This document shows, in pieces, positions 14,579-60,785 of a stretch of 64,000 nucleotides of DNA. A program made the translations under genes and the position numbers. The notes under the pieces were generated by a model that was given only the letters and a program-made list of their open reading frames with translations, ran no database searches and was not told the DNA's origin. Source of the DNA: a virus; IMG/VR virus record IMGVR_UViG_3300030107_002828, positions 4,851-68,850 of that record, one strand, 5' to 3'. Position 1 is the stretch's first letter, and every line of letters starts with the position of its first letter.

Positions 14579-14592
14579 ATTGTTGTTTATTA

Positions 14593-22154: not shown

Positions 22155-23708
22155 ATGTCCGATAAACTTGTGAAACATCTTAACTTCGGTCAAGATGCAA
22201 AAGATCAAATATTTAAAGGGATAAATAAACTCACTAAAGCTGTTAGCTCCACATTAGGAGCTAGCGGCAAGTGTGTTATCCTGGAAGATGATCAAGGAAA
22301 ACCCATTATAACCAAAGATGGTGTAACGGTTGCAAACTCAGTAGTATTGTTCGATGCTGTTGAAAACATGGGTGCAACATTACTAAAAGAAGCTGCCAGA
22401 AAAACTGTTGAAGAAGCAGGAGATGGCACAACTACAGCTACAGTATTAGCTCAAGCAATATTAACAGAAGCTGTAAAAGAAAATATTAATACTAGAGATT
22501 TAAAAGAAGGTATTAATTCAGGTGTTAAAAAAGTTGTAAATTATTTAGACAATATTAAAATAGATGTTACAGGTGACATGATTAATCAAGTCGCTACTAT
22601 ATCTTCAAATAATGACAAAGAATTAGGGGAACTAATTGGAGGAGCATTTAAAAGTGTAGATAAAACAGGTATTGTAATAATGGAAGAATCTAAAGATTTA
22701 AATTCTTCTGTTGAAATAATTGATGGTATGCAGTATGATAAACCTTTAAAAAGTTTACATTTTGCTACAGATAAAAACAAAGAAATTGCTGAATTAAAAA
22801 ATCCTTCGGTTCTAATAGTTGAATCTAAAATTGAAAACATACGTAAAATACAAGGTATTTTAGAGCATGTTATAAAAACAAATGAATCTTTATTTATTAT
22901 AGCAGATGTAGAACCTCAAGTTCTCGCTGCATTAGCAATGAATAAGATGAAGGGTAATATAAAAGTGTGTATTGTAGATGCTCCAACTTATGGATTCACA
23001 AAAAAAGAAAAATTAAATGATTTAGCTTTAATGACTGGAGCTACAGTTATTAATGAAGATTTAGGTGATGATATGGATTTAATACATCCTCAACATTTAG
23101 GAAAAGCTAAAAAAATAACTAGTAATAAAGAAAATACTATAATACAAGTTAAAGAAACTCCAGAAGCTGTAAAGGATTTGATTGAAGAAATTCAACAAAA
23201 ACAAGCAAAAGAAAAAATTCCTGGATATAAACTAGCATATGAAAAAAGACTATCGTTATTAGCTGCTAAAGTAGCCGTCGTCAAAGTAGGTGCTAACTCT
23301 GAAATTGAATTAAAAGAGAAGAGTGATAGAGTCGAAGATGCAATTTGTGCTACAAAAGCCGCAATAAAAGAAGGTATAGTTCCCGGTGGTGGTGTTGCTT
23401 TACTTAACGCTGCGTTTAATAATGATGAAGATAATATGGGGGAAAAAATATTAATGAGAGCAATATTAGCCCCTTATAAAAAAATATTAGATAACGCTGG
23501 TATTGAGAAAATTACAATGCCTGAAAAAAACGGGTTTGGTATTAATGTGGTTACAGGAAATATGGTAAATATGATTGACAGTGGAATTATAGACCCACTA
23601 TTAGTCACAAAAAGTGCGTTACTAAATGCGGCTTCTGTAGCGACAACTATCTTATCAACTGATTGTATAATAAATAATATTAGAATTCATGAGGGCGATA
23701 GGAAATAA
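22155..23708 (+). CDS. groEL: chaperonin GroEL (phage-encoded)
   Basis: [34 protein letters not shown]; no GGM tail. Confidence 0.97.
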
Positions 23709-31092: not shown

Positions 31093-31312
31093 AGAATTAA
31101 TTAAAGTTGCTAAAGAACCTATTATAGATTATGGTCCAGATATTTCCGCAGATAGATTAAAAAATGCTGCAGCTACTAAAAAACTAGCTATATTTGATGC
31201 TTTTGAAATATTAAATAGATTAGAAGAAGAAAAAAATATGTTAGAAGACAAACCTAAAGAAGAAAAAAAAGAAAAAACTTTTAAAGGTTTTGCTGAAGGG
31301 AGGTCTAAATAA
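31037..31312 (+). CDS. putative terminase small subunit
   Basis: Small helical ORF directly upstream of TerL; positional inference. Confidence 0.5.
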   Translation: MSTKETKKNIIQAGQVAVKELIKVAKEPIIDYGPDISADRLKNAAATKKLAIFDAFEILNRLEEEKNMLEDKPKEEKKEKTFKGFAEGRSK

Positions 31313-33522
31313 TGTATAAGCAAGTATTATATAAGGTATTAGATAATCATATTAAACCTAAAATTATTAATCGATTAAATCGGTATAGTAAATGGGAATA
31401 TGGTTATAACAAAGAACATGATGTTATAGTTATATCTAAAACAGGAAAAATAGGTGAAATATATGAGATACAAAATCTTAAAATAGCTTTACCTAAAGAA
31501 GAAAAAGTTCATAAATTTGAAAATAATAAATGGACTAAAACTGAATATCCCAAAGCATTAAGTAGAATCAAAACTGTTTTTGATTGGAAAGAATATCCAG
31601 AAGATTTTAAAGAAAAATGGTTTGAATATATTGATGAAGAGTTTAAAAGACGTGAAGAAGGATTTTGGTTTTATAATAAAGATAAAGCAACTTATTTAAC
31701 TGGTACTCATTACATGTATTTACAATGGAGTAAAATAGATGTTGGAGCACCTGATTTTAGAGAAGCAAATAGATTATTCTTTTTATTTTGGGAAGCATGT
31801 AAAGCTGATACAAGATGTTATGGAATGTGTTATCTTAAAAACCGTAGATCTGGTTTTTCATTCATGGCTTCAGGAGAAATTGTTAATTTGGCAAGTATAT
31901 CAAGTGATTCAAGATATGGAATATTATCTAAAACTGGACCTGATGCAAAAAAGATGTTTACCGATAAGGTTGTACCAATATCTGTAAATTATCCTTTCTT
32001 TTTTAAACCTATTCAAGATGGTATGGATAGACCTAAAACAGAATTAGCATATAGAGTTCCAGCTTCTAAATTTACTAGAAGAAAGATAGAACAAGGAAGC
32101 GAAGCAATAGATTTACAAGGATTAGATACAACTATTGACTGGAAAAACACAGGTGATAACTCTTATGATGGTGAAAAACTAAAGTTATTAGTACATGATG
32201 AATCAGGTAAATGGGAAAAACCAAACAATATTTTAAACAACTGGAGAGTTACCAAAACTACCTTAAGATTAGGTTCTAGAATTATTGGTAAATGTATGAT
32301 GGGATCAACTTCTAACGCATTAGATAAAGGTGGTAGAAACTTTAAAAAATTATATGATAGCTCAGATGTTACAAAAAGAAACCGCAATGGACAGACTAGC
32401 TCGGGATTATATTCTTTGTTCATACCTATGGAATGGAACTACGAAGGATACATTGATTCTTATGGCTTACCTGTCTTCAATACCCCAACTAATGAAGTCC
32501 AAGGACCGCAAGGAGAATTTATCGATCTTGGAGTCATCGAATATTGGGAAAATGAAGTTGATGGATTAAAAAACGATCAAGATGCTTTAAATGAATTTTA
32601 TCGACAATTTCCTCGAACTACTAAGCATGCTTTTAGAGATGAATCTAAATCATCATTATTTAATTTAACTAAAATTTATCAACAAATAGATTTTAACGAA
32701 GACGCGAATAATAAAGCTTTAGTTACTCAAGGTAATTTTATGTGGGAAAACGGAATTAAAGATAGTAAAGTAGCGTTTTATCCTAATAATACAGGTAGAT
32801 TTTTTATAACTTGGATTCCAGGTAAAAATTTACAAAATAGATTTATAGAAAAAAATGGTATTAAATATCCTGGTAATGAACATATGGGCGCATTCGGTTG
32901 TGATCCTTATGATATATCGGGTACTGTAGATAAAAGAGGGTCTAATGGATCTCTTCATGGTTTAACTAAGTTTAGTATGGAAAATGCTCCACCAGATCAT
33001 TTCTTTTTAGAGTATATAGCTAGACCACAAACAGCTGAAATATTTTTTGAAGATGTATTAATGGCGTGTATATTTTATGGGATGCCAATACTAGCAGAAA
33101 ATAATAAACCAAGATTATTATATCATTTTAAAAGACGAGGATATAGAGGTTTTTCAATGAACAGACCAGATAAATTTAGAAATAAATTATCTGTAACAGA
33201 AAGAGAAATAGGTGGAATACCTAATTCAAGTGAAGATATAAAACAAGCTCATGCTGCAGCTATAGAATCTTATATAGAAACAAAAATAGGTTTTAATGGA
33301 GATGCTTATGGAGATATGTACTTCCAAAGAACCTTAGAAGATTGGTCTGCTTTTGATATAAATAATAGAACTAAACATGATGCGTCTATTAGCTCTGGTT
33401 TAGCTTTAATTGCTTGTAATAAAAATAGATACGCTCCAATGAGTAGAAGAAAACGTGATTCAATTGACTTAGGTATTAAAAAATATAACAACAAAGGATT
33501 GGTCTCAAAAATAATTAACTAA
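31312..33522 (+). CDS. terL: terminase large subunit
   Basis: Walker A variant KNRRSGFS; Walker B LLVHDESGK; GSTSN; nuclease GCDPYD...AENN...HDA. Confidence 0.92.
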   Translation: MYKQVLYKVLDNHIKPKIINRLNRYSKWEYGYNKEHDVIVISKTGKIGEIYEIQNLKIALPKEEKVHKFENNKWTKTEYPKALSRIKTVFDWKEYPEDFKEKWFEYIDEEFKRREEGFWFYNKDKATYLTGTHYMYLQWSKIDVGAPDFREANRLFFLFWEACKADTRCYGMCYLKNRRSGFSFMASGEIVNLASISSDSRYGILSKTGPDAKKMFTDKVVPISVNYPFFFKPIQDGMDRPKTELAYRVPASKFTRRKIEQGSEAIDLQGLDTTIDWKNTGDNSYDGEKLKLLVHDESGKWEKPNNILNNWRVTKTTLRLGSRIIGKCMMGSTSNALDKGGRNFKKLYDSSDVTKRNRNGQTSSGLYSLFIPMEWNYEGYIDSYGLPVFNTPTNEVQGPQGEFIDLGVIEYWENEVDGLKNDQDALNEFYRQFPRTTKHAFRDESKSSLFNLTKIYQQIDFNEDANNKALVTQGNFMWENGIKDSKVAFYPNNTGRFFITWIPGKNLQNRFIEKNGIKYPGNEHMGAFGCDPYDISGTVDKRGSNGSLHGLTKFSMENAPPDHFFLEYIARPQTAEIFFEDVLMACIFYGMPILAENNKPRLLYHFKRRGYRGFSMNRPDKFRNKLSVTEREIGGIPNSSEDIKQAHAAAIESYIETKIGFNGDAYGDMYFQRTLEDWSAFDINNRTKHDASISSGLALIACNKNRYAPMSRRKRDSIDLGIKKYNNKGLVSKIIN

Positions 33523-35907
33523 ATGAATATATACGCAAATCCAAATAGCGCATTTCCGAGCCAAGTAGTTCCAGATGCTGAAAAATCTTCCATTGACTAT
33601 GGTAGAAGAGTTGCACAAGCTATTGAAAGTGAGTGGTGGAGGCAAGGTGGCAATGGCACTAGATTTGCTTCGTCTTATAATCAATTTCATACATTAAGAT
33701 TATATGCTCGTGGTGAGCAACCAGTTCAAAAATATAAAGACGAATTAGCTATTAATGGTGATATGTCTTATCTTAATTTAGATTGGAAACCTGTTCCAGT
33801 AATTTCTAAATTTGTAGATATTGTAGTAAATGGTTTATCTGAGAAACAATTTGAAATTAATGCTTACGCTCAAGATCCTATTTCTTTAAAGAAAAGAACA
33901 GATTACGCTAGTGCTATCTTACAAGATATGATGGCTAAACCCTATTTAGATAATCTTCAAGCAACATTAGGTGTTAGTGAATATCAAAGTCCAGATCCAG
34001 CTAATCTTCCAGAAAATGAAGAAGAATTAGATCTTCACATGCAGTTAAGTTATAAACAATCTATAGAAATTGCTCAAGAAGAAGTAATAGATAATACTTT
34101 AGCAAAAAATAAATATCCTAATATTAAGAAAAGATTTTTCTATGATTTAGTTACTTTAGGTATTGGTGCAGTAAAAACTGATTGGAACAAAGCTAATGGA
34201 GTTACAATTGATTATGTTGATCCATCTCGATTAATATATTCTTACACTGAAGATCCTAATTTTGAAGATATATATTATGTAGGAGAAGTTAAACAATTAA
34301 CTATTCCTGAAATAGCTAAACAATTTCCTCATTTAACAGAAGAACAATTAGATAGAATTTCTAAAACTAAAGGTTATCAAAACGAAAGATTATATGGTTG
34401 GCAAACTTATGATCCCGATACAGTTCAAATTTTATTTTTTGAATACAAGACTTATAATACTCAAGTATTTAAAATAAAACAAACTGAAAGTGGTTTAGAA
34501 AAAGCATTAGAAAAACCTGATACATTTAATCCTCCTAAAAATGATAAATTTGAAAGAGTAGAAAGAAAAATAGAAGTTCTATATAAAGGAGTGAAATGTA
34601 TAGGTAATAATGAATTAATAGAGTGGAAATTGTCTGAAAACATGACAAGACCTTTTGCAGATACTACTAAAGTAGAAATGAGTTATGCTATTGCTGCTCC
34701 TCGTATGTATAAAGGAAGAATTAATTCTATAGTTAGTAAAATAACTGGGTTTGCTGATATGATTCAATTAACTCATTTAAAACTACAACAAGTAATTGCA
34801 AGAATGGTACCAGACGGTGTATTCTTAGATATGGATGGTTTAGCAGAAGTTGATTTAGGTAATGGTACTAATTATAATCCAGCTGAAGCATTGAATATGT
34901 ATTTCCAAACTGGTAGTATTGTTGGTAGATCATTAACTCAAGAAGGTGAAATGAATCCAGGTAAAGTACCTATTCAAGAACTACAAACATCTTCTGGTGG
35001 TCAAAAAATATCTAGTTTAATACAAACTTATCAGTATTATTTACAACTAATAAGAGATGTGACCGGACTTAATGAAGCTAGAGATGGATCTGTACCTGAT
35101 AAAAATACTTTAGTTGGTTTACAAAAAATGGCAGCTAATCAATCCAATATTGCTACTAAGCATATATTAAATGCTGGATTATGGTTAACAACTAGAACAT
35201 GTGAAAATGTAACTTTAAAAGTTGCTGATTCATTAAAATTCCCTCTTACTCTAAATTCTTTAAAGAGTTCTATATCTACTTATAATGTAGGCACCTTGTC
35301 AGAGATACAAAATTTAAATCAGCATGATTTTGGTATTTATCTTAAATTAGAACCAGAAGAAGAAGAAAAAGGAATGTTAGAACAAAATATTCAAATGTCT
35401 CTTCAACAAGGAGGTATTGATTTAGAAGATGCTATTGATATTCGTCAAGTTAAAAATATAAAATTAGCTAACGATATGTTAAAGCAAAAACGCAAAAAAG
35501 CAGCTAAAGCTAAACAGCAGCAAGAGCAAGCTATGGTACAAGCCCAAGAACAAGCTAAAGCTGCAGCTGATCAAGCTAGAGCTCAAGCAGAAATGCAAAA
35601 ACAACAAGCTCTTACATCTTCGCAGGTTCAATTTGAACAAGCTAAAAACCAAATGGAAATTCAAAGGTTACAAACTGCTTCTCAAATTAAACAACAAGAA
35701 ATGCAGATACAACATCAATTTGATTTAGAATTAAAACAAATGGAAGTTGAAGCTATGAAAGCTAAAGAAGCAGCGATAGAAGATCGTAAAGATAAGAGAA
35801 CCAAAATAGAAGGTACTCAACAAAGTCGAATGATTGATCAAAGAAATAATGATTTAATGCCAATTGACTTTGAAAAACAAACTCCGGGTGTACAACCGGG
35901 TATTTAA
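33523..35907 (+). CDS. portal protein
   Basis: 794 aa after TerL; VTGLNEARDG motif; Gln-rich C-terminal barrel helix as in P22/crAss-type portals. Confidence 0.88.
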   Translation: MNIYANPNSAFPSQVVPDAEKSSIDYGRRVAQAIESEWWRQGGNGTRFASSYNQFHTLRLYARGEQPVQKYKDELAINGDMSYLNLDWKPVPVISKFVDIVVNGLSEKQFEINAYAQDPISLKKRTDYASAILQDMMAKPYLDNLQATLGVSEYQSPDPANLPENEEELDLHMQLSYKQSIEIAQEEVIDNTLAKNKYPNIKKRFFYDLVTLGIGAVKTDWNKANGVTIDYVDPSRLIYSYTEDPNFEDIYYVGEVKQLTIPEIAKQFPHLTEEQLDRISKTKGYQNERLYGWQTYDPDTVQILFFEYKTYNTQVFKIKQTESGLEKALEKPDTFNPPKNDKFERVERKIEVLYKGVKCIGNNELIEWKLSENMTRPFADTTKVEMSYAIAAPRMYKGRINSIVSKITGFADMIQLTHLKLQQVIARMVPDGVFLDMDGLAEVDLGNGTNYNPAEALNMYFQTGSIVGRSLTQEGEMNPGKVPIQELQTSSGGQKISSLIQTYQYYLQLIRDVTGLNEARDGSVPDKNTLVGLQKMAANQSNIATKHILNAGLWLTTRTCENVTLKVADSLKFPLTLNSLKSSISTYNVGTLSEIQNLNQHDFGIYLKLEPEEEEKGMLEQNIQMSLQQGGIDLEDAIDIRQVKNIKLANDMLKQKRKKAAKAKQQQEQAMVQAQEQAKAAADQARAQAEMQKQQALTSSQVQFEQAKNQMEIQRLQTASQIKQQEMQIQHQFDLELKQMEVEAMKAKEAAIEDRKDKRTKIEGTQQSRMIDQRNNDLMPIDFEKQTPGVQPGI

Positions 35908-46500: not shown

Positions 46501-48576
46501 ATGGCTTTAACTTTAGAAGTAAATTATTTTAATTCCTTTTATTTAAAAAGATTAGCGGGAGGAGATAGTAACTCAGGTGCGGCTAGTGCGGGTTTAGACA
46601 AAAAATTAACACTTCCTTTACCTCCTTCATTAAACTATTCTTCACTAACGCCCACCCTAAACACAGGTTATCCTTGGGTTGCACCTATGACTACAAGTCC
46701 AGATGCAGATTGGTATATAGAAGAATCGAGAATTAGAGGAGGTTATAATAATACTAGTGTAGATTTAGGTGTAAAAGCTTATATAGTTTCAGAAGAACCT
46801 AATCAAAATATAAGAGGAAATTCTTTGATTTATTCTGGAGTATTTAATTCTAGAACTGGTATAAACAATACTAATCAATTTAGTGTAGCAGAAGAAATTA
46901 CTAGAAGTGTAGATCCTAAAGGAGGAACTATACAAAAATTATTTGCTGAAGACACTAATTTAACAGTATTTCAAGAGCGAAAAGTTAATGTAGCTTTAAT
47001 AGATAAAGATGCAATATATAGTGCAGAAGGTTCTTCAATATCTACTACAGCAAATGTAGTAATTGGACAAATAACCCCTATACCTGGTAACTGGGGAATA
47101 AGTACTAATCCAGAATCTTTTGCAACTTATGGGTATACAAAATATTTTGTAGATAAAGATAGAAATGCAGTATTAAAAATAGAAGGTACTCAGTTACAAG
47201 AAATACATGTAGCAGGTATGACTGATTTTTATAGAGATCAATTATCTACTGTAGGAGAGAATGATGCAATTTTAGGTACATGGGATGTTTATAATATGAA
47301 TTATGTATTATCTATACAAACTGGAGGTACATCTAGCAATCCAGCTCGTTTTAATACAGCAGCTACATACAAAACATTAACATGGGACGAAAGAAATAAA
47401 GGTTGGACTAGCTTTTTTACTTATAAACCAGAAACATTTTTTAGCTGTAGAGGACAATTTTATTCTACTACTATAGGAAGTGCAGACACAGGTTATGAAT
47501 TAGTTGGATCAATATCAGTTAACACTCTTAATGGAGTAGATGGTACTTATACGGGAACAGTAGGTGTAGATGCGGGTTATACAAGTAATGTAAGTGGCAC
47601 AGGGTTAAATATAACCGTAACTATTTCTGGTAATACATGTACCTCTATAATAGTAAACACATTAGGATCAGGTTTTATAGCAGACGAAAGAATATCAATT
47701 AGTACAACTGTAATTGGAGGTACTCTGAGTGTAGACGTTCAACTTACAGAAGCTGATTTAAATTATGTACAACCTAATTCTAATTTATATTTACATTATT
47801 CTAACACTAATAGAAACATGTTTTATAACACTTCTAGCGCATCTTCTGTGCAGTTTGTGTTTAATCCTATGCCTAACTTTATTAAAACCTTTAAAACAGT
47901 TAATTACGAAGGTAGTAATGGTTGGGAAATAACTCAGTTTGATTCAGAAAATACAGGTCAAGATCCTACTATAACACCGGTAGGTGGATGGTTAAGTCAT
48001 TTTGATAGTATAGCAGGAGGAGGATCACCAATAACTAGCTTAGGAGCAACTGCAACATTAGTAAGTAGTATTACTACTCAAACAGTAGATGCTACAGATG
48101 GAACTTATAACAATGCAGAGTGGACAACTAGTGGTAATGGGTATGGATTAGTTTGGAATATTGGGGTTGGAGGTAATGAAGTAAGTTCTATTACTGTAAC
48201 CAATGCAGGTAATGGATTTAAAGAAGGCGATACTATTACAATACCAACCGGAGTAATAGGTGGAACCACCAACGTTGTAGTAACCCTACAAGCAGTTGAT
48301 GTAAGTCCTTATTTAAAAATATACAGTTATGAAGAAGGATCTTATATAGAAGATAACATTCAATATAGAGCTGGATTCGATAGAAAACAAAATAAATATT
48401 ATGCGGTTGTACCTAACAACACTTTAACTCCTATGGCAGGTGAAGTTATATTTGGTAATCAAACAATGGGTGTAAAAGCATATTATAGTACAGTAACAAT
48501 TAAAACCGATACTACAACAGATCCAAACGGACCTAAGTCATTGTTTGCGGTTAGTAGTGAATATATAAATAAATAA
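46501..48576 (+). CDS. tail nozzle/stabilisation protein, C-terminal part
   Basis: GTIQKLF..DTNLTVFQE.KV; WGISTNPESF; GWTSFFTY.PE. Confidence 0.75.
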   Translation: MALTLEVNYFNSFYLKRLAGGDSNSGAASAGLDKKLTLPLPPSLNYSSLTPTLNTGYPWVAPMTTSPDADWYIEESRIRGGYNNTSVDLGVKAYIVSEEPNQNIRGNSLIYSGVFNSRTGINNTNQFSVAEEITRSVDPKGGTIQKLFAEDTNLTVFQERKVNVALIDKDAIYSAEGSSISTTANVVIGQITPIPGNWGISTNPESFATYGYTKYFVDKDRNAVLKIEGTQLQEIHVAGMTDFYRDQLSTVGENDAILGTWDVYNMNYVLSIQTGGTSSNPARFNTAATYKTLTWDERNKGWTSFFTYKPETFFSCRGQFYSTTIGSADTGYELVGSISVNTLNGVDGTYTGTVGVDAGYTSNVSGTGLNITVTISGNTCTSIIVNTLGSGFIADERISISTTVIGGTLSVDVQLTEADLNYVQPNSNLYLHYSNTNRNMFYNTSSASSVQFVFNPMPNFIKTFKTVNYEGSNGWEITQFDSENTGQDPTITPVGGWLSHFDSIAGGGSPITSLGATATLVSSITTQTVDATDGTYNNAEWTTSGNGYGLVWNIGVGGNEVSSITVTNAGNGFKEGDTITIPTGVIGGTTNVVVTLQAVDVSPYLKIYSYEEGSYIEDNIQYRAGFDRKQNKYYAVVPNNTLTPMAGEVIFGNQTMGVKAYYSTVTIKTDTTTDPNGPKSLFAVSSEYINK

Positions 48577-50882: not shown

Positions 50883-53800
50883 ATGCAAGACAAACTAAAC
50901 CAGATCCTTTTTAAAAGTGATTATTGGAAAAACTTATCTAATCCTGAAAAGAGTGCTCTTAATTATCCTTATGCAGCAGGAGAAGAGCAAAGAAGAAAGT
51001 GGTTAGAAGAACATGGTGTTCTTGAACAAACTAATGTTGCGGTTGAAGAAGAAGTTTCTGGTGATGATAATATTGAAGAAGTTGAGGTTGAGGAAGTAGA
51101 ACCTAAAGAAGAGTCGGTATCTACGGAGGTTTTAGCTGGTAGAAATGGTGCTGAAAAAATGTGGAAATATTTTAAGGATAATGGACAAGTAACTCAAGAT
51201 TTTGAAACTTGGTACAAAAAATTAAAAGAAAACCCTTCAGCTCAAGAGAAATTATATCAATTTGGTAGAGGTAAAGGTTTTATTACACAGGATTATAATA
51301 CATGGAAAAATAAATTAACTGGTTATACGGGAACAGAAAATATAACTATTTTTGGGGAAACTGTTAATGATGAAGAACAAAATACTGAAAATCAAGCTAA
51401 TAGTTGGAGCTCTCAAAACGATGCTATAGTAACTAAAATAAGTAGATTAAGAAATAACCCTATATTATTTACTCAAGCTGATGTTGATGCTGGTATTGCT
51501 AAACCAAATCAAATAGGTAATATTAATGCAGCTGCTACAAATGAAAAAATAAAAGAATTACAAGATTCTGCACCTACTATATATACGTTTGATGAAGAAG
51601 AGGCAAGAGCTACTTATAAAGCTGAAAGAGAACAAGAATTAACTGATTATGAAAAAGAAAGAGCAGGTAGTTTAGGTATTACAGAAGAAGGTGAAGAAAT
51701 TTACGACAGTGGTTCTATGTTTAAAGATGATAAATTAATGCATGGCTACTTGTTAAAGCATTGGAACAAAACAGGTTTATTATCAGGTAAAGTAAATATT
51801 GACAAGTTAAGAACTGTAGCTGAAAGAATAGGTTTTGATATGAATAAATTTGAAAGATTATCAAAAGCTAGATATGATACTGGAGAGGGAAGTTTAGCTA
51901 GAGAGCTGTTGTTAAAGCTAGAAGAATACATGGTAACTAAAAGTACAGGAGGTAGACAATTTATATTAAAAGGTAATATGAGTGGTTATAGTACTGGAAA
52001 CGTTCCTGATATATCTAAAAGAGTAAGTGTGCTTGACGATAGAGATGTTCTTACAGATGAAGAAATAGAATCAAGAATACAATTAGATAAAGATAGAGTT
52101 GCTCTGTGGCAAAAAGGTGAACTTGAATTAGATACTAAAGAGTTAGCTGGAATAATAGGTATTAGACCTGAAGCGCAACAGTTTGTTAATTCATTTTTTC
52201 CAGAATCAATAGATAAAGAAGACGATGTAAATAAAATAGCATCTGCAGCTATTAGTAAAGCAGCGCAAGCAGATCCTAGGTTTGCATTAATACAAAATGA
52301 GATTAATGAACACTTAGTAGATCAGTCAAAAGAAAAATGGTCTGAACTATCTAAAAAATATGGAGAGAACGGGGAAATTACTACTCAAACAGATTTAGAA
52401 GCTGCTCAAAAAGAATTTGCTGAATGGTATAATAAAAGCTTTAATGAATCTTTGCAAAATAATAAAGAAGCAACTGATTTATTTCAAATGTATGGAATAG
52501 CGGGAGAAAGAGCTTTAGATAAAAGACTTAAAGAAGATAGAAACTATAAGCCAGGAATGAAAGATGATTATGTCTTAAACTGGGTTAATGATCAACTAGA
52601 TAAATACGAGGATGATGATAGTTTTCATGGTAAAGTAAGAGAGGAATTAGCTTATATGGCACAGGCTTTTCATAAAGTACCTGTGACAACAGAAGAATGG
52701 ACAAATAGTTTTGAAGTATCACTTGCTGGAGGACAACAACGTAGAAGACAGAAAATAGTAAATGAACTTAATTGGGGTTTAGAAAATGGTAAGATAACCA
52801 ACGACATGACTCTAGGTGAAGCTAGAAAATATGTTAAAGGATTAGATGATAGATTAACTTGGCATGATTGGGGTTGGACAGATAATGACACTGTAGGTGA
52901 TTATTTATCTAGAAAAGAAATTAGAAAAGAAAATACAGAAGATAGAATACAGTTTGATTTAGACGAAAGAGATGCAGCTCTTAAACATTTAAATAATTTT
53001 GTTACTAGAGAAGTAGAAGATGGAATGTTTGACAGTATTGAAGGTTTTGGTAGTACAATAGTTGGAGGTATTGATCAAATAACCCACATGGCTCCTCGTA
53101 TAGCGGGTTATGGTTTAATGACAGCTGGTACTTTAGCTACAGTTTTTAGTGGTGGTACTGCTACGCCTGTTGGAGCTGGATTATTCTATACTGGTATGGG
53201 GTTAAGTGCTATTGGTAACACTGTTCAAGGAGCTATGGAATATGCTGATATTTACATGAGTTCATTAGAAAATAAAATGACTGAACAATATGGAGAAGGA
53301 GGTTTTACCACAGATGAATATATTCAAGCATTAAATGAAGGATTAGGTATGCATCAAGGAGCAGCTGTAGCAGGTGGTGTAGGTGTTGCGGCTTCTGAAT
53401 TTGCGTTTGATGTACTTGGTTCTAAACTTGGAGGATCTGGAGCTGGTTTATTATTTAAAAATCCAGCAATGCAAACTATTGTAAAGAACACTTTAGGTAG
53501 ATATTTAGCAAGAGCAGGAACAATGTATGGAGAATATAAATTAGGTCAGTACAAAGAAGGTGTAACAGAAGGATTCCAGTCTTATTTATCACAAGCTACA
53601 ACTAATATGGCATCAGGATATGCGTCTCCATTTAGTAGAAATATTGATTTTGATCAGATATATACCGAATATAAAGCTGGTAAGAAAATGGGTAGTTTAT
53701 TTGGAATGGGTGGTATCGCTGGTCAGTTTAAAGGAGGTTTATATTCAGCTGATGGATATGTAGCTAATGCTACTAAAATTGCAGAAAATATTGATATGTC

Positions 53801-56800
53801 TCCAGATTCATCTACGTTCTTAACAGCTAATGCTCATTTTGATCAATTGATAGAAAATGTTAATTCAGATACAAAGTTAGATCCTAAGCAAAAAAGAGAA
53901 GCTATAAAAAATATTTCTGACATTAGAAGTTCTACAATAAAAATTCCTAAAACTATTACTGGTGAAACAAAAGGTAAATTAATAGATTTATTAATTGAAA
54001 AGAAAACATTAGAAACTAAAATTAAAGCCGTAGGAGATACGGATATTAGCGCTAGTGATATATCTAGAAAAAATGCTATTGGTGAAGAAATACAAAAAAT
54101 AGTAGATGATGCTAATGTGGAGTTAGCACTAGATAAAAATGTTGGTAATGTTAGACAAATTGTACATAAAAGCTCTAAAGGTAAAATTACAATAGATGAA
54201 GTAGCTGATGCTAAAGAAGCTAACGCGTTTGCAAAAAGTGAAAGATTACAAGGCTGGAAAACAAAGTATTCAAGTAATCAAGGTACAATATTACAAAACC
54301 CTAAGACAGGCGAACAAAAAATAATAATAAATAGAGATCAAGCTCTTAAAGATCAGGCGGTTAATGTAGCTGGTCATGAGTTTTTACATGGTTTATTATT
54401 TGAAACAGTAAAAAATAGTCCTGAGACTGCTATAAATATGGGTAATGCTTTAGATTCTGAACTAAAGAAATTAAAAGTAAGTGAAGATAGTAAATATTAT
54501 AAGCGTTTAGAACGATATAAAAATGATCCAGAAGCTATGACAGCTGAAGAAAAACTAACTTTATTTTCTGATGCTTTAGCTTCAGGTGATTTAAAATTTA
54601 ATGAAAATATCTTTACTCAAATAGGAGATAATATTAGAAGGGTTTTACAAGCTGTTGGATTAAAAGGAATAAAATTTAATAATGGTAGAGATGTTTATAA
54701 TTTTATAAAAGACTACAACAGTTCTATAGAAAAAGGCGAACTTAACATAGCACAAGAAAAATTGTTAGCTGGTAAAGCTGAAGGTGATTTAATAGTAGAT
54801 GAAGTAATAGATACTGATAAAAAAGCAAAAGCTTCAAAACCTGGAACTAAAACTACAATTCCTAAATCAGCACCAACAAAAGATATATATAAAGATTTTG
54901 CAGAAAGAACGTGGGCAGAAGACTTACAAAAATCTAAAGATAATATAAATACACAGTTTGGAGCAGGTACTGTTGAAACAATTAAACAGACTGTTCCCTG
55001 GGAGACATTTAAAAAACGACAAATTGAAAGAGGAATAGACTGGGACGGCCAAATAAAAGCTAATGATGAAAGTAGAATGCAACGAGATTATGAGGCTGTT
55101 CAAAGAGATATTAAGAAACAGAAAGATGCAATTAAAGCTGAAAAATTTAGAACAACAGCACCAAGAGATAAATTTGGAAGCATAGATACAGATAAAATTT
55201 TAGCTGAAAAAAAGAAGAAAGAAATACAAGGTAAATCTTCTAAATCTGATAAGAAAGTTAGTAAAGCTAGACAAGCAGACTTAGATAGAATGACGCCTAA
55301 TCAAAGACGAGCTGAAGAAGGATATTCACCTTGGGAACTGGTTAGACAACCTGATGGATCTTTAAAACTGGATAGTAAATTTATAGGTAGAACCGCAGCG
55401 ATAGCAGCTTTAAAACGTCAAGGTGATTCCAATCAGGGTATGGATTCGTTGTTAAAAAAGGACAAAGCTTTTGAACCTCAATACAGTGCTAAGTCATCAA
55501 AAGGCGATACTCAATCATTATCTAATCTTACTAAAGAATATCAAGATGGTAATTATGATAATGTAGAAGATTTAGCAGCGCAATATCAAGCTGCGGGTAG
55601 AGATGCGTTAAAAAGATGGGCTGGACAGCGGAAAGTTCCTTTAAATCTTAGTAATCCACAGTTTAATAATGAAGTAACAAGTTTGTTAAACAAAGAGTTT
55701 CCTAGTTTTATTAAGAATTTTGATCCATCAAAATCAGAAGCATCTACATACATGAATCAAATTGCTAAAAGAGTTGGTCCTAAAATTGTAGAAGAAGCAA
55801 CTAGAAAAGGAAAGCAAGTTAGTCAAGATGTTTTAAGTGAAAAAGGAGTAGCTGTAGAAACTACAACTCAAAAAGATTTTGATTCAACTAAACAAAAAGA
55901 TACAGGTAGAAAGAAGAAATATCCTTCTTCAATACCTGCTGTTAAAAATCAAATAACAGAAAATGTTGCTGCAGATTTAGTAGGTGGAATTGTTGATGGG
56001 AAACCTGTGGGATTAGCAAAAGATATAATATCTAGTATTAATAGAAATACTGATCCTGAAAAAGTAGCTCAAAATATAATAGCTGACACTAAAGATAAAA
56101 GTGTTATGCGTACTATGAGAGAGTTAGTAGGTAAATGGGGATCACCAGAGTACAACGCTTTTGTAAACACAATAATTGATCAAGGATTGATTGGTACAAT
56201 ACCAGCTTCTACAATAAAGCGAAGACTAGGTAGACAAAGTAATGTTGATTCTGGCTTAATTAATTATAAAAAAATAGGTAAGACAGATCAAATAAAAGTT
56301 AAAGATGGTAAGAAAACTTATTCACGTCCTGATGTCTATGCTATAACTAAATTAGATAAAAATAAGTTAAAAGATTATTATAAAGATAACGAAAAAAGAC
56401 AACAGTCTTTATTTAGCATGTTAACTGAAGGTATCATGGCTGAGGGTGTACAAACTCTTAGAAATGATAAAAACTTCATGGATAAGTTACAAGATGTATT
56501 AGAACTTAAAAAATCTCCATTAACTGCTGAGGAATTTATGGATGGTTTAGAGCAGAAGTTAGATCAACGTACTAAAGAAGATAGATCATTAGATGAAGTA
56601 ACAGTTAAGTCAGCTAAAAAAGATGTTCCTCTTACAGCTAAAGAAAAAAAGCAATTAAAAGATGATGCTAGAGTTCAAATCAAAGAGTTAAACGATTATA
56701 ATACTTTACCTACTAAAGCAGGTGTTAAGTTAACAAAAGACGAAAAACAAATCAAGCAAGTAGGAACTATAACAGCTCATTATAAAATGGGTGATAGTTT

Positions 56801-59800
56801 CCATGTTCCTAGTACTATTGCAGGAGGAACTTCAACATCTATATATCAAGTACAAAGTGAAGCTAATAGAGATTTAAATAGATCTTTAGACGCAGAGACA
56901 GTTGCTATATTAGAATCAGAAGGTATACCTACAATAAAAAGAAATGGTAAAGTATATTACGATAAATCAAAGGCGAATAATATTGATATAATTCTTACTG
57001 ATAAAAAAGGAAATATAGTTACTCATGAAAAAAGCGATAAAAGAAGAGGTATTAAAAAAGGTGACCCTGTAAGCACTATTCAAGAAGCTCAAAGTGAACA
57101 ACTAAAATATTCAACCTGGAGTTGGAAAACATTTTTATCTAAGATAGCTGATCCTAATTGGAGAAAGCAACAAGCAAATAAAATAAAGGTACTTAAAAAT
57201 ATAGCCAAAACAATAGCAGATGATTTAAACTCAGTGGCTAAAGATAGTGAAGCTTATAAAAGAAAATTAACCTACTGGACAGCGTGGTTAGAAGCTCAAG
57301 TAAATAACAGCATGCATCCTATCAGGGCTTTAGCTCCTATAAAATTTTGGAGTAAATTAATGAAAGGCAAAATGAGAGCAGAACATGCTTTCCCTGCTAA
57401 TCAAGTTGCTAGTATGATTTTAGGTATGGCAAAAAGAAATACCGTAGATAGAGACTTTAAGTTTATTGAAAAAAATTATATTCAAGGTAAAATAACAGAA
57501 GTTCAAGATAATTTAATAAAAAGAAACTATGATGGCGTAGATCTTACTAGAGATATACAAGATGAGTTTTTTGATAATGAAACCGGAGTTTGGATAAGAT
57601 ATACAGATCCTTCTATTAATGATAAAAAAGGTGGTATTAATAATAATACTTTATTGGTTTGGGATAAAAATGGAAAAAGACAAACTCTTACTGAATCATT
57701 AGGTGTAGGTTTAACGCCTTCTCAATACAATATGCCAAAAGGTGGTCCTAGAGCGGGAAGAATGAATCAAAACCTTATACAAGAGCAAAACAACTTTATA
57801 TATGATATGCTTACAAAAGGTGAGCCAACTGCTAAGGTTGCTAAAGAAAGATTAACTGCTAAATATAATTTAAAAGTTCAAAGAACTAAAACAAATGTAG
57901 TTGCTAAGAATAGTAAATCATTTGGTGATCAAATATTTGATGAAGAAGCTACTAGTACTGCTCAAAAAGAAACAATGTTAAATTCTTTAGAAACTAGAGT
58001 TTTAGCGGCTAAACCTAATAGACCTGCAAAAGGTATAAGTATATTTGATTTTGATGATACACTTGCTAAAACAAAAGAAAAAGTAATTGTTATTGATAAA
58101 GATGGTAAAAGAAGTGAAATATCAGCATCAGAATTTGCTAAAACAGCTGATATATTAGTAGAAGGAGGAGCTTCATTTGATTTTAGTAATTTTGAAAAAG
58201 TAGCTAAAGGAACTAAAAAAGGACCATTAGCTGATATTGCTTTAAAACGTCAAGGTAAGTTTGGTAGTGGTGATATATTTGTTTTAACCGCTAGACCACA
58301 AAGCGCGGCTCCAGCTATAAAACAATTTTTAGATAGTATAGGATTAGATATACCTTTAGAAAATATAACAGGATTAGCAGATGGAACAGCTCAAGCTAAG
58401 GTTGATTTTGTTTTAAATAAAACCGCGGAAGGATATAATGATTTTTATTTTGCTGACGATTCTATTCCTAATGTTAAAGCGGTAAAAGAAATATTAAATG
58501 AAATAGATATAAAATCTGATACTGTTATAGCTAAAGCTTCTAAACAAGATTCATTAAATAAAGATTTTGAAAAACAAATAGAAGAAGTTACTGGTGTTGA
58601 AAGTTTTAAAAAATATTCAACAGTTAGAGCTAAGTTAGAAGGAAAGAAAAAGGATGCTGGTTTTCTTAAAAGAGTAAAAAGACAATTTACTATAACCTCT
58701 TCTGCGGATGACTTCTTAGGTTTGTTATATCCAATCATGGGTAAAGGCGAACAAGGAAATAAACATAGAAAGTTTATTGATGATAATTTAATGAATCCAT
58801 ATAATAAAGCTGAACAAGAATTAATGTCAGCTCAAATGAGTATTGCTAGAGATTTTGAAAATCTTAAAAAACAGTTTCCTAGTTTAAAAAGTACTGGTTT
58901 AAGCAATCCTTTAATGGATGAAATTGGAGTTGGACCTTATACTAAATCTCAAGCAATTAGAGTTTATATGTGGCACAAGCAGGGTATGGAAATTCCTGGT
59001 ATGTCTAAGCGAGATATTAATGATTTAGTAAAAGCGGTTGAATCAGATAATGAGTTAAATGTTTTTGCTGACGAGGTAATGCTTATAACAAAAGGTCATG
59101 GTTACCCAGCTCCTACTAATAATTGGTTAGCTGGTAATATATCACAAGATATTATATCAGAATTACAAACTGGACTTAGACCGATGCTTATGGCGGAGTT
59201 TAATGAAAATGTAGAAAAAATATTTACTCCTGATACAATGAATAAGTTAGAAGCTATTTATGGAAGTAAATGGAGAGAGGCTTTTGAAGATAATTTACGT
59301 AGAATGAAATCCGGTAGTAATAGACCGGTTTATGTAGGTGGTGGAGCTAGAATAGTAAATGAAATGTTAGATTGGTTGAATAAAGCAGTTGGTAATATGA
59401 TGTTCTTAAATATTAGATCTGGTACATTACAGCTTTTATCTAATGTAAATTTTATAAATTGGGGTGATAATAATATATATAACGCAGCAAAAGCTTTTGT
59501 AAGTAAAGATTATTGGCCAACAGTAATGAAGTTATTAAATTCTGATTATTTAGTTAATAGACGTGATGGATTAAAAATTAATGTTAATGAAGCTGAATTA
59601 GCAGATGCTGGTAAAAAAGGTGGGTTTAAAGGTGCTTTATCTTATTTACTTGACAAAGGTTTTGTTATAACAAGAATAATGGATAGTGTAGCAATTGCAA
59701 CAGGTGGAGCCACATTCTTTATCAACAGAAAAAAAGCTTTATTAAACAGAACAAATCCTGAAACTAATAAAAAATATACTGAAGCAGAAGCAGAAGCAAA

Positions 59801-60785
59801 AGCATTTGATGACTTCTATGCTATATCTGAAGAAACTCAGCAGTCTAGTAATCCAAGTAAAATATCTCAACAGCAAGCAAGTTTGTTTGGTCGTACAATA
59901 TTAGCTTTCCAAAATGTTACAATGCAGTACAATAGAAAGGCTAAGAAAATGTTACTTGATTTAATTAATAGAAGAAAAAGACCAGGTATGACACAGCGTG
60001 AAAGTGATCTTAGTAATATATCTGGTGTATTGTATTACACTACTGTACAAAACCTAGTATTTAATTCTATGCAACAGGCTTTATTCGCGTTAATGTTTGA
60101 TGATGCTACAGATGAAGAAGAAAAAGATAAAGCCGCGAATATACTTAACGGTATGTTAGATTCTATATTATTTGGATTTGGATTTGGTGGAGCTATAACA
60201 TCTACAGTGAAAAATGTAGGATTAAAAATATTAAGTGAATCTGAAAGAAAATCTCCAGATTATGAAGAAGCGGTGTGGGAAGTATTTAATGTATCACCTG
60301 TTATAGATTCTAAGGTTCGTAAATTAAGATCTGCAGCTAAAACTTTTAATTGGAATATGGATAAGGTAAAATCAAGAGGTTGGAGTATAGAAAATCCTGC
60401 GTACTTAGCTGTAGCACAAGTATTATCTTCTGGTTTTAATATTCCTATAGATAGAGTTTTACAAAAATATAATAATATGGCTCAAGCTATGGACGAAGAA
60501 ACTCGTACTTGGCAAAGAATAGCTTTAATTATGGGTTATAGTGGTTGGAACTTTGATCTACCTTATTGGGGAACACAAAGCCATTTATTAGCAGAACAAG
60601 CTGAGATCGAAGAAATGAAGCAAGATTATAAATATAATGCTAAAAAATTAAAAGCTCAAGGATATAAAAGAATACCATTAACTGGACCTAAAGCAGGTAA
60701 ACCCGATGGTAAATTAAATGAAGATTATATAGAAGTAGAGAGATGGGATGGTGTTATAGAATATTGGATAAATTTAAATAAATAA
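50883..60785 (+). CDS. giant (3300 aa) polyvalent virion/ejection protein: membrane segment, zincin, sigma2-like module, HAD phosphatase
   Basis: Gly/Ala hydrophobic stretch near 53100-53230; HEFLH at 54375; FDPSK..STY at 55719; DFDDT/LTAR/FADD at 58047-58460. Confidence 0.85.
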   Translation: MQDKLNQILFKSDYWKNLSNPEKSALNYPYAAGEEQRRKWLEEHGVLEQTNVAVEEEVSGDDNIEEVEVEEVEPKEESVSTEVLAGRNGAEKMWKYFKDNGQVTQDFETWYKKLKENPSAQEKLYQFGRGKGFITQDYNTWKNKLTGYTGTENITIFGETVNDEEQNTENQANSWSSQNDAIVTKISRLRNNPILFTQADVDAGIAKPNQIGNINAAATNEKIKELQDSAPTIYTFDEEEARATYKAEREQELTDYEKERAGSLGITEEGEEIYDSGSMFKDDKLMHGYLLKHWNKTGLLSGKVNIDKLRTVAERIGFDMNKFERLSKARYDTGEGSLARELLLKLEEYMVTKSTGGRQFILKGNMSGYSTGNVPDISKRVSVLDDRDVLTDEEIESRIQLDKDRVALWQKGELELDTKELAGIIGIRPEAQQFVNSFFPESIDKEDDVNKIASAAISKAAQADPRFALIQNEINEHLVDQSKEKWSELSKKYGENGEITTQTDLEAAQKEFAEWYNKSFNESLQNNKEATDLFQMYGIAGERALDKRLKEDRNYKPGMKDDYVLNWVNDQLDKYEDDDSFHGKVREELAYMAQAFHKVPVTTEEWTNSFEVSLAGGQQRRRQKIVNELNWGLENGKITNDMTLGEARKYVKGLDDRLTWHDWGWTDNDTVGDYLSRKEIRKENTEDRIQFDLDERDAALKHLNNFVTREVEDGMFDSIEGFGSTIVGGIDQITHMAPRIAGYGLMTAGTLATVFSGGTATPVGAGLFYTGMGLSAIGNTVQGAMEYADIYMSSLENKMTEQYGEGGFTTDEYIQALNEGLGMHQGAAVAGGVGVAASEFAFDVLGSKLGGSGAGLLFKNPAMQTIVKNTLGRYLARAGTMYGEYKLGQYKEGVTEGFQSYLSQATTNMASGYASPFSRNIDFDQIYTEYKAGKKMGSLFGMGGIAGQFKGGLYSADGYVANATKIAENIDMSPDSSTFLTANAHFDQLIENVNSDTKLDPKQKREAIKNISDIRSSTIKIPKTITGETKGKLIDLLIEKKTLETKIKAVGDTDISASDISRKNAIGEEIQKIVDDANVELALDKNVGNVRQIVHKSSKGKITIDEVADAKEANAFAKSERLQGWKTKYSSNQGTILQNPKTGEQKIIINRDQALKDQAVNVAGHEFLHGLLFETVKNSPETAINMGNALDSELKKLKVSEDSKYYKRLERYKNDPEAMTAEEKLTLFSDALASGDLKFNENIFTQIGDNIRRVLQAVGLKGIKFNNGRDVYNFIKDYNSSIEKGELNIAQEKLLAGKAEGDLIVDEVIDTDKKAKASKPGTKTTIPKSAPTKDIYKDFAERTWAEDLQKSKDNINTQFGAGTVETIKQTVPWETFKKRQIERGIDWDGQIKANDESRMQRDYEAVQRDIKKQKDAIKAEKFRTTAPRDKFGSIDTDKILAEKKKKEIQGKSSKSDKKVSKARQADLDRMTPNQRRAEEGYSPWELVRQPDGSLKLDSKFIGRTAAIAALKRQGDSNQGMDSLLKKDKAFEPQYSAKSSKGDTQSLSNLTKEYQDGNYDNVEDLAAQYQAAGRDALKRWAGQRKVPLNLSNPQFNNEVTSLLNKEFPSFIKNFDPSKSEASTYMNQIAKRVGPKIVEEATRKGKQVSQDVLSEKGVAVETTTQKDFDSTKQKDTGRKKKYPSSIPAVKNQITENVAADLVGGIVDGKPVGLAKDIISSINRNTDPEKVAQNIIADTKDKSVMRTMRELVGKWGSPEYNAFVNTIIDQGLIGTIPASTIKRRLGRQSNVDSGLINYKKIGKTDQIKVKDGKKTYSRPDVYAITKLDKNKLKDYYKDNEKRQQSLFSMLTEGIMAEGVQTLRNDKNFMDKLQDVLELKKSPLTAEEFMDGLEQKLDQRTKEDRSLDEVTVKSAKKDVPLTAKEKKQLKDDARVQIKELNDYNTLPTKAGVKLTKDEKQIKQVGTITAHYKMGDSFHVPSTIAGGTSTSIYQVQSEANRDLNRSLDAETVAILESEGIPTIKRNGKVYYDKSKANNIDIILTDKKGNIVTHEKSDKRRGIKKGDPVSTIQEAQSEQLKYSTWSWKTFLSKIADPNWRKQQANKIKVLKNIAKTIADDLNSVAKDSEAYKRKLTYWTAWLEAQVNNSMHPIRALAPIKFWSKLMKGKMRAEHAFPANQVASMILGMAKRNTVDRDFKFIEKNYIQGKITEVQDNLIKRNYDGVDLTRDIQDEFFDNETGVWIRYTDPSINDKKGGINNNTLLVWDKNGKRQTLTESLGVGLTPSQYNMPKGGPRAGRMNQNLIQEQNNFIYDMLTKGEPTAKVAKERLTAKYNLKVQRTKTNVVAKNSKSFGDQIFDEEATSTAQKETMLNSLETRVLAAKPNRPAKGISIFDFDDTLAKTKEKVIVIDKDGKRSEISASEFAKTADILVEGGASFDFSNFEKVAKGTKKGPLADIALKRQGKFGSGDIFVLTARPQSAAPAIKQFLDSIGLDIPLENITGLADGTAQAKVDFVLNKTAEGYNDFYFADDSIPNVKAVKEILNEIDIKSDTVIAKASKQDSLNKDFEKQIEEVTGVESFKKYSTVRAKLEGKKKDAGFLKRVKRQFTITSSADDFLGLLYPIMGKGEQGNKHRKFIDDNLMNPYNKAEQELMSAQMSIARDFENLKKQFPSLKSTGLSNPLMDEIGVGPYTKSQAIRVYMWHKQGMEIPGMSKRDINDLVKAVESDNELNVFADEVMLITKGHGYPAPTNNWLAGNISQDIISELQTGLRPMLMAEFNENVEKIFTPDTMNKLEAIYGSKWREAFEDNLRRMKSGSNRPVYVGGGARIVNEMLDWLNKAVGNMMFLNIRSGTLQLLSNVNFINWGDNNIYNAAKAFVSKDYWPTVMKLLNSDYLVNRRDGLKINVNEAELADAGKKGGFKGALSYLLDKGFVITRIMDSVAIATGGATFFINRKKALLNRTNPETNKKYTEAEAEAKAFDDFYAISEETQQSSNPSKISQQQASLFGRTILAFQNVTMQYNRKAKKMLLDLINRRKRPGMTQRESDLSNISGVLYYTTVQNLVFNSMQQALFALMFDDATDEEEKDKAANILNGMLDSILFGFGFGGAITSTVKNVGLKILSESERKSPDYEEAVWEVFNVSPVIDSKVRKLRSAAKTFNWNMDKVKSRGWSIENPAYLAVAQVLSSGFNIPIDRVLQKYNNMAQAMDEETRTWQRIALIMGYSGWNFDLPYWGTQSHLLAEQAEIEEMKQDYKYNAKKLKAQGYKRIPLTGPKAGKPDGKLNEDYIEVERWDGVIEYWINLNK

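Follow-up and report, generated by a model that had tools for sequence, protein, structure and literature searches.

A divergent homologue of sigma domain 2 within a giant phage protein and its possible role at phage entry

When host promoters are unusable, phages are known to adopt one of two solutions: either a complete RNA polymerase is injected, or an injected enzyme modifies that of the host. The virion RNA polymerases N4 gp50 and phi14:2 gp66 are giant proteins, encoded among the tail genes, that are packed in the particle and ejected to start early transcription. In bacterial transcription, sigma domain 2 binds the beta' clamp helices of the core polymerase and opens the -10 element. 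T4 gp55, which is of the sigma-2 type only, contacts the beta' clamp helices and recognises one -10-like element; it is a free protein of 185 residues that is made mid-infection and needs gp33 and the sliding clamp. In this work, we analyzed a stretch of 64,000 nucleotides (the window), comprising bases 4851-68850 of the single 68,850-base virus record IMGVR_UViG_3300030107_002828 of IMG/VR. An open reading frame (ORF) of 3300 residues in this window encodes a giant protein, and residues ~1546-1642 of this protein are almost certainly a divergent but true homologue of domain 2 of the sigma-70 family. Our best reading, which we put forward tentatively, is that of an ejected factor with only sigma domain 2, like T4 gp55, that would dock on the host core and read the early promoters.

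The sigma-like segment of the giant protein

The initial annotation had placed a sigma region 1.2/2-like module at window positions 55503-55830. The residues that it quoted were found as given: this interval reads GDTQSLSNLTKEYQDGNYDNVEDLAAQYQAAGRDALKRW...EFPSFIKNFDPSKSEASTYMNQIAKR...VSQD in frame 1, and corresponds to giant residues 1541-1649, directly after AKSSK (55491-55502). The ORF is uninterrupted both in the ORF list and in its translation. We aligned 72 homologues of the giant protein (1871-3408 residues), all from marine metagenomes. The longer segment named for testing in the initial annotation, 55503-56606, coincides with a block conserved in these 72 giants (~1540-1920), the flanks of which (~1300-1530 and ~1921-1950) are nearly unalignable, with an occupancy of 4-26%. 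The giant ORF and the parts of the module are as follows.

50883-60785, plus strand: giant ORF, the last large gene in the head/tail block
55491-55502, plus strand: KSSK motif at the border of an unconserved linker and the conserved block; candidate processing site
55518-55808, plus strand: sigma domain 2 homologue (giant 1546-1642), with four helices corresponding to regions 1.2, 2.1, 2.2 and 2.3/2.4
55656-55718, plus strand: helix 3 (model residues 58-78), the equivalent of region 2.2 and the predicted contact with the beta' clamp helices
55719-55772, plus strand: FDPSKSEASTYMNQIAKR, covering the loop and the first part of helix 4; more conserved than any other stretch of the sub-domain
55809-55907, plus strand: charged linker of ~33 residues between the sub-domains (model residues 109-141), with a predicted local distance difference test score (pLDDT) below 50
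55908-56582, plus strand: C-terminal sub-domain of ~225 residues, made of helices and a four-stranded sheet; matches no known fold
56607-56618, plus strand: KSAK, after the conserved module end ...KEDRSLDEV; candidate processing site

Two alignments were used for profile searches: A2, the whole module from the window and 20 IMG/VR loci, and A4, the N-terminal sub-domain only (21 sequences, 121 positions). In A2, the module end D..R..ED.S.D (window 56550-56620) is nearly invariant, and it is followed in about 10 of the 21 members by residues resembling K/R-A-S/N-K, as read by eye. The gap between the profile matches of the two sub-domains is 20-28 residues in 21 loci. A similar S-x-D also follows the sigma-2-like domain; this S-x-D and D..R..ED.S.D are candidate processing sites beside the K-x-S-K motifs.

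An AlphaFold2 (AF2) model of giant residues 1535-1925 (mean pLDDT 77.5) had four helices in its N-terminal sub-domain (model residues 12-108), then a charged, disordered linker (109-141) and a C-terminal sub-domain (142-366). The N-terminal helices span model residues 12-20, 27-48, 58-78 and 86-108, with pLDDT of about 77-90. The model was searched by VIA-align over 48,161 representative PDB chains. Among the top 15 rows (Z 5.3-7.2, all over model residues ~6-110, with a root-mean-square deviation (rmsd) of 3.1-6.0 Å and 75-113 residues aligned), 13 were named sigma-factor entries: SigB, SigI6, SigC, SigK, ShbA, sigmaE region 2, CnrH, SigW, BldN, AlgU, R. sphaeroides SigE, pro-sigmaK and a region 1.2-2 fragment of RpoS. 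Transcription complexes made up the other two rows, represented by chain F of the T4 late complex 7d7d and by chain C of 9n9q. The first row was 7d7d chain F, which is presumably T4 gp55 (Z 7.2, rmsd 3.8 Å, 92 residues aligned). When the 827 best chains of Foldseek were re-aligned, the top 19 all came from sigma-containing entries, with Z up to 7.4; these rows were counted by entry (presence of a sigma factor) rather than chain by chain. Foldseek itself returned nothing at E<=0.001 for the whole-module model, presumably because the floppy linker joining two domains blurs the search, and its rank 12 was sigmaE region 2 (probability 0.92, TM-score on target 0.61). All structural Z values lie below 8, where a common helical arrangement can give such values; the fold alone is thus insufficient, and it is the near-exclusive sigma content of the top rows that carries weight. 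With this caveat, the predicted model has the fold of sigma domain 2.

The A4 profile was then compared with 1.84 billion representative proteins, giving 137 hits at E<=0.001, mostly giants or fragments of giants. Ten short hits were scanned with Pfam, and four of them were sigma factors, matched on or beside Sigma70_r2. P0196 (267 residues, E 2.4e-4) was matched at 36-120 and carries Sigma70_r2 at 50-119 (E 5e-11) together with Sigma70_r4; P0198 (205 residues, E 5.1e-4) was matched at 11-90 and carries Sigma70_r2 at 19-87. P0191 (239 residues, E 1.3e-4) was matched at 3-97 and has Sigma70_r3 at 110-141, and P0195 (283 residues, E 1.9e-4) has Sigma70_r3 below the cut-off. The remaining six had no Pfam family, and two of these resemble pieces of giants. 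When A4 was aligned by hhalign with the four sigma factors and the window's own sigma, 80 columns lying on region 2 of P0196 were matched with 97.2% probability, a value inflated because the target set was chosen for hitting A4. In the reverse direction, P0191 alone found giants by phmmer (best E 2.7e-6 in 403 proteins) in the same register. The best A4 match among 177,635 PDB sequences was S. aureus SigB (E 0.12), in the register of the structural match.

The stretch FDPSKSEASTYMNQIAKR resembles the FDP..G..FSTY..I.R stretch of sigma regions 2.2-2.4, and was aligned to YDP...STY of real sigma factors. In sigma factors, the stretch of regions 2.3/2.4 faces the -10 element. Over 48 giants, F79, the aromatic of F-D-P, is aromatic in 100%; S87 and T88 are small residues in 85-90%, Y89 is aromatic in 85%, the position four residues past Y89 is hydrophobic in 85%, and R96, seven positions past Y89, is basic in 96%. 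In 40 full-length giants, Y1623 and R1630 hardly vary. Far more variation is seen in the helix equivalent to region 2.2 than in the STY...R stretch.

Several results weigh against this assignment. The Pfam model Sigma70_r2 (PF04542) matched none of the 21 A4 members at E<=10 and nothing in the giant protein, and the whole-module profile A2 found no sigma among the 177,635 PDB sequences, its one hit being unrelated (E 0.75). Pfam (E<=1) and PHROGs (E<=0.01) showed no sigma and no other meaningful family in the giant protein or in its residues 1541-1908, and phmmer of the whole giant against PDB sequences gave no relevant match. Primary sigmas have a tryptophan pair after STY, and their region 2.3/2.4 residues recognise and melt the -10 element; here, this pair is replaced by Q-I. 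The structure matches, the profile hits, the hhalign alignment and the reverse search nevertheless together show homology to sigma domain 2, and the module proposed in the initial annotation is borne out by the first three of these.

Predicted docking on the host polymerase and the variable downstream domain

The initial annotation had also proposed a multimer prediction with host RpoC. As a stand-in for the host protein, residues 150-400 of RpoC from F. johnsoniae were modelled in complex with the A4 domain. The complex passed, scoring 0.65, 0.65 and 0.61, compared with 0.01 for the best of three controls; 58 of 80 solved complexes attain the score mark, as do 2 of 110 mismatched pairs. Between runs, at least 95% of contacts are the same, and the partner has a pLDDT of at least 80. 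The predicted contacts involve helix 3 (59, 62, 65-66, 69-70 and 72-73), helix 2 (24, 27-28 and 31) and residues 108-117 on the phage side, and RpoC 272-346, which, judged from the numbering in E. coli, we take to be the clamp helices.

Against this docking, the pass may stem from the model's memory of solved sigma-beta' complexes, and the RpoC used is a stand-in from a cultured Flavobacterium. In addition, conservation at the predicted beta' contact positions does not exceed that at the other helix positions (0.46 vs 0.51). The domain is embedded at residues 1546-1642 of an uninterrupted ORF and is not a free, dissociable subunit; tethered in 3300 residues, it might not reach the core polymerase. 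Weighing these points, we hold with moderate confidence that the domain binds host core polymerase, as the complex model predicts. A role of the domain as an early promoter specificity factor is a tentative proposal, to which we give somewhat less than even weight.

The same homology and the same predicted beta' docking would apply if the domain were a sigma mimic used as a weapon, that is, an ejected domain that occupies the beta' clamp helices and bars the host primary sigma, so that host transcription would stop immediately, while reading no promoter itself. In favour of this, the searches revealed neither a sigma domain 4 nor another domain that reads promoters, and multidomain injected phage proteins carrying effectors that act on host polymerase have been described (Iyer et al. 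2017, PMC5512222). On the other side, the best conserved part is the DNA-facing STY...R stretch and not the predicted core-binding helix, and conserved F79, STY and R96 would be more in line with a DNA-facing function that has been kept than with a decoy that only binds core. No polymerase of the phage's own was found in the complete genome, so the host core must stay usable, and the non-host early promoters would still need a reader. A mimic of this kind appears unlikely.

Sigma domain 2 is also a single-strand DNA-binding module, and its fold could have been reused without polymerase, either to bind single-stranded or end phage DNA (to protect it or to pull it in) or as an element of packing or ejection. 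This would agree with the DNA-facing motif being the conserved part and the core-contact positions not being specially conserved, and with a surrounding protein full of unrelated domains (zincin, HAD-like, and a C-terminal part near LPD38/LPD39 clusters). By contrast, the complex model puts the domain on beta' by a wide margin over the controls. Such a reuse would also leave early transcription unexplained, given that no polymerase was found and host-type promoters are scarce; we consider it distinctly improbable.

What follows the sigma-2-like domain differs among relatives. The C-terminal sub-domain, folded alone by AF2, reached pLDDT 88.2 and a predicted template modelling score (pTM) of 0.81, and its best scores in the ESM Atlas were all below 0.8. 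Among 81 related IMG/VR loci, the A4 profile detected the sigma-2-like domain in 33; four rounds of local iteration raised this to 49, and its relative position in the giant protein did not change between loci. The C-terminal sub-domain was present in only 22 of the 81. What stays constant is thus the sigma-2-like domain, with a downstream partner that varies. In 28 of the 49 loci, a different conserved region succeeds it (for example in L004, L010, L027, L045, L067 and L069). These alternative downstream regions are of at least two types, one of which has a recurrent F-G-I/L-x-P...I...K pattern.

As a point against the main reading, the downstream domains gave no sigma signal. For the C-terminal sub-domain, the highest Z in a VIA search was 4.5 and the rows listed included no sigma entry, Foldseek found nothing at E<=0.001 in PDB and BFVD, and hhalign against five sigma factors gave 0.2%; the alternative downstream domains of 27 other loci likewise gave 0.2% by hhalign against sigma factors. 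In all, no sigma domain 3 or 4 and no other known promoter- or flap-binding domain was found, in searches that a small helix-turn-helix could escape. A sigma-4-like helix-turn-helix had been suspected by eye in the C-terminal sub-domain, and was dropped after VIA, Foldseek (PDB and BFVD) and hhalign gave it no support. The same suspicion for the alternative downstream domains was dropped after Pfam scans of ten segments and hhalign.

Early transcription and packaging of the giant protein

The virus record is 100% complete (CheckV, 68,850 bp). As the initial annotation had noted for the window, no RNA polymerase gene is evident: Pfam PF00940 and PF00623 detected no single-subunit or multisubunit RNA polymerase in the complete genome, the PF00940 search being a weak one (its control was positive in 0 of 14 control genomes), and the DxDGD motif is absent from all open frames of at least 100 residues. 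The genome searches thus found no virion RNA polymerase catalytic module, whether a T7-like palm or DxDGD double-psi beta-barrels. Two further features bear on early transcription.

6052-6804, minus strand: free-standing phage sigma gene, separate and divergent; phrog_351, E 4.9e-18
8067-14616, minus strand: class I early motif CGAA-N3-TAATAC-N11-GATAATA in six copies, heading the early arm; candidate targets of the module

The second sigma that had been placed at 6052 was confirmed by its phrog_351 match and by Sigma70_r4 (E 6.5e-4). It also scored 13.2 bits with Sigma70_r2 at window 6559-6696, the sole PF04542 match over the whole genome; the A4 profile does not match this gene.

Early promoters had been described as not of host type. 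The strict promoter pattern of Bacteroidota is TTTG-N17-23-TAnnTTTG. This pattern is scarce in window 1-64000, with one match; the mean in shuffles was 4.53, and 99 of 100 shuffles contained it once or more, in agreement with that description. The class I motif that had been reported is real: TAATAC-N11-GATAATA occurs in six copies against 0.54 expected, all on the minus strand within 8067-14616, and the six aligned copies have CGAA-N3-TAATAC-N-A-N-T-N7-GATAATA in common. The copy at 8067 is upstream of both a ligase gene (7001-7837) and the sigma gene, which share its strand. Since the sigma gene is downstream of a class I copy, the phage sigma could not be the first to read it, unless packaged.

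Motif clusters were found in 7 of 10 related records, in two variants, each on one strand near one record end. TAATAC-N11-GATAATA, with A or T before GATAATA, is present in the window, G001, G002 and G009, and AAATAC-N11-GGATAATA, with G before GATAATA, in G006, G008 and G010. (Records G001, G002 and G006-G010 were reached via loci L048, L042, L051, L067, L074, L077 and L037.) For co-occurrence of module and motif, we compared five records thought to have the module with five thought to lack it. Three module-bearing records were incomplete and without the motif, and three of the five 'lacking' records were found to carry the domain by the N-terminal profile with iteration. A point against a link is that G006 (100% complete) and G008 have class-I-like motifs while the A4 profile finds no module anywhere in them; in their giants, a similar pattern is seen by eye at the module's place. 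With records regrouped and genomes incomplete, this comparison neither supports nor refutes the link between module and motif.

The module might instead be the initiation factor of an unrecognised phage polymerase, located in the giant protein or elsewhere in the genome, comparable to the specificity subunits of AR9 or phiKZ-like phages. Virion polymerases of crAss-like phages long went unnoticed in sequence searches. No family is assigned to large conserved parts of the giant protein (~2070-2300 and ~2560-3300), and the AR9 non-virion polymerase holoenzyme appeared at VIA-align rank 25 (Z 4.9). Set against this are the negative DxDGD, PF00940 and PF00623 searches, the C-terminal 741 residues of the giant protein, which are nearest to LPD38/LPD39 viral clusters and not to polymerases, and the complex model, which favours host beta'. 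We regard a hidden polymerase as very improbable.

The module could reach the host core before any phage gene is expressed if the giant protein were carried in the virion, which we consider likely from its gene context. The terminase large subunit (31312-33522) is encoded upstream in the same block as the giant ORF, as is the portal (33523-35907). Several 'virion structural protein' families are also encoded upstream in this block, as is a 691-residue protein with a crAss muzzle C-terminal domain (46501-48576). In Elemovirus and phi38:1, the syntenic last large genes are annotated as structural proteins. The giant ORF probably encodes a virion-carried multidomain ('polyvalent') protein.

The nearest cultured relatives of the portal (26-40% identity) are from Flavobacterium phages (Elemovirus, 68 records), Cellulophaga phages (15), and phages of Tenacibaculum and Maribacter. 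As these are phages of Flavobacteriaceae, the host is probably a marine member of this family, and the phage is most likely a podophage. A contig search yielded 19 contigs of metagenome-assembled genomes with mixed labels (5 Flavobacteriaceae or Bacteroidetes), and gave no firm host.

The syntenic virion giants of these cultured relatives share at most the zincin region with the giant protein. Elemovirus gp18 (3694 residues, syntenic) shares only the zincin region with the giant protein (domain E 2.5e-8; HEIFH there) and has no sigma-2-like domain. Cellulophaga phage phi38:1 gp101 is syntenic and not homologous to the giant protein, and its structural label was given by similarity to a phi18:1 protein. 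Searches by tblastn with 2900 residues, with the module and with the C-terminal 741 residues found no match in 50,697 GenBank phage records, a set from which near relatives of the window were possibly excluded, and megablast of 24 kilobases against the same records likewise found none.

If the giant protein were unpackaged, the module would be made in the cell, early or late, as part of a polyprotein and act as an ordinary phage sigma, or be a decaying remnant. The finding that no cultured relative among these GenBank records carries the module would be in keeping with this. The position of the gene at the end of the head/tail block, however, matches that of the virion giants of related phages, the domain is kept at the same place in 49 of 81 loci, and the phage already has a free sigma gene. 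The probability of this alternative is small in our estimation.

Over the 72 homologues, the conserved blocks of the giant protein are ~990-1300 (with HEFLH at 1165), ~1540-1920, ~2070-2300 and ~2370-3300 (with the HAD-like DFDDT at 2389). One feature of the first block is relevant to processing.

54375-54389, plus strand: HEFLH zincin motif in the conserved block ~990-1300; candidate processing peptidase

H1165, E1166 and H1169 of this motif are nearly invariant in 40 giants. The putative zincin assignment derives from the motif and from the region in common with Elemovirus gp18, and has no Pfam hit. According to Iyer et al. 2017 (PMC5512222), modules of N4-type virion polymerases nearly always occur in fusion with a zincin-like peptidase. 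The linker borders and the K-x-S-K motifs suggest that the module may be released by cleavage.

Taken together, our best reading of an ejected factor limited to sigma domain 2 would run as follows. The giant protein would be packaged in the virion and be ejected together with the DNA, in the manner of the polymerase-bearing giants of N4 and crAss-like phages. The module, whether tethered or cut free at the linker borders, would dock on the host core via its region-2.2-like helix, and would then be a minimal specificity factor of the T4 gp55 type. It would direct the host core to the CGAA-N3-TAATAC-N11-GATAATA early promoters before any phage gene is expressed. The class I promoters would in turn drive, among others, the phage's own sigma gene. 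This functional cascade is plausible: we infer packaging, cleavage and promoter reading, and beta' binding is predicted in silico.

Other parts of the giant protein and of the genome attracted attention. Window 57990-58540 (giant ~2370-2550) is highly conserved, with a DFDDT...LTAR...DD pattern typical of HAD-type phosphatases; many positions of this HAD-like block are nearly invariant in 40 giants, and the Pfam HAD model does not match it at E<=1. At window 57381-57404 (giant ~2167-2174), E2167 and H2168 are invariant in 40 giants and sit within an A-E-H-x-x-P-A-N stretch of block 2070-2300, for which Pfam (E<=1) finds no family. The best conserved part of the giant protein is window 58560-60782 (giant 2560-3300), for which a PDB sequence search gave no match. 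In the ESM Atlas, the closest clusters to the C-terminal 741 residues are viral clusters of unnamed proteins (score 0.98-0.99), and further off are clusters with LPD39 (28% of members) or LPD38 (92%), which are a lead only. A full-length GroEL-type chaperonin is encoded at window 22155-23708 (phrog_5725, E 7.8e-134; Cpn60_TCP1, E 2e-56), and such a gene is also present in Elemovirus. A run of 10 N at record base 2909, upstream of window base 1, falls in or near a large minus-strand ORF resembling ribonucleotide reductase.

Comparison with known systems

The initial annotation knew of no described case of injecting only a sigma module, and our literature search agreed with this: in main texts, no report of an injected or virion-carried sigma factor was found, and nothing on the giant protein was found in the Elemovirus literature. 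The word 'sigma' is absent from the main text of Iyer et al. 2017 (PMC5512222), whose supplementary domain tables may name a domain of this type differently. A jumbo-phage survey, in the portion drawn on here, describes only free phage sigma factors (PMC7824862).

Speculatively, and with rather less than even confidence, we suggest that in a family of marine flavobacterial podophages a minimal sigma forms one bead of a self-processing giant protein and is delivered by its ejection, so that the host core is reprogrammed at entry. If so, early promoters would be read before any gene expression and without a phage polymerase. Phages would then have a third strategy in addition to injected polymerases (N4, crAss and phiKZ) and injected modifying enzymes (T4 Alt), and a cheaper one, in that a virion sigma domain would borrow the catalytic core of the host and bring only the promoter chooser. 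It would explain how transcription starts in an abundant marine group, in which 568 IMG/VR stretches encode a relative of the giant protein, with no polymerase gene found and very few host-type promoters. The variable downstream domain, in at least two versions, would be a new kind of partner replacing sigma domain 4. Transcription signals in Bacteroidota differ from those of model bacteria, and a natural minimal sigma of ~100 residues would serve for studying promoter opening in this phylum. A transcription-initiation module would also be added to the domain catalogue of giant injected phage proteins. Even without a promoter-reading role, a sigma-2 homologue in such a protein is a clear lead to an effector directed at host polymerase.

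Polyvalent proteins resemble the giant protein in having many unrelated domains, a conserved HExxH zincin and a late-operon location (Iyer et al. 2017, PMC5512222). As judged from its motifs, the giant protein likewise appears to combine several unrelated domains, including a zincin-like peptidase, and its gene lies with virion and late genes; no Pfam LPD model matches it at E<=1. T4 Alt, an injected ADP-ribosyltransferase, is similar in being delivered by the virion and in retargeting host polymerase at entry (PMC5512222). The difference is that Alt modifies the polymerase enzymatically, whereas the module here would replace a subunit.

Alternative and extracytoplasmic function (ECF) sigma factors (PF04542) have in common with the module the four-helix domain 2, the FDP..G..STY..I.R stretch, the profile and pairwise links, and the predicted beta' docking. 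They differ in that the module is unmatched by the Pfam model, has no domain 4 that was found, is not free, and is followed by a domain whose fold is unmatched. T4 gp55 has a sigma-2-type domain without domain 4, which shows that domain 4 is not obligatory; none was found in the module either. Unlike gp55, our domain forms part of a protein of 3300 residues from the virion gene block, and the gp55 match is tied with many cellular sigmas (Z within 1), so that a special kinship does not follow from it.

The virion polymerases of N4 and crAss-like phages are the closest parallel in their mode of delivery, and a crAss muzzle domain is encoded in a neighbouring gene here. Those proteins are complete polymerases, whereas the giant protein described here would bring only a sigma-like piece, and RNA synthesis would be left to the host core.

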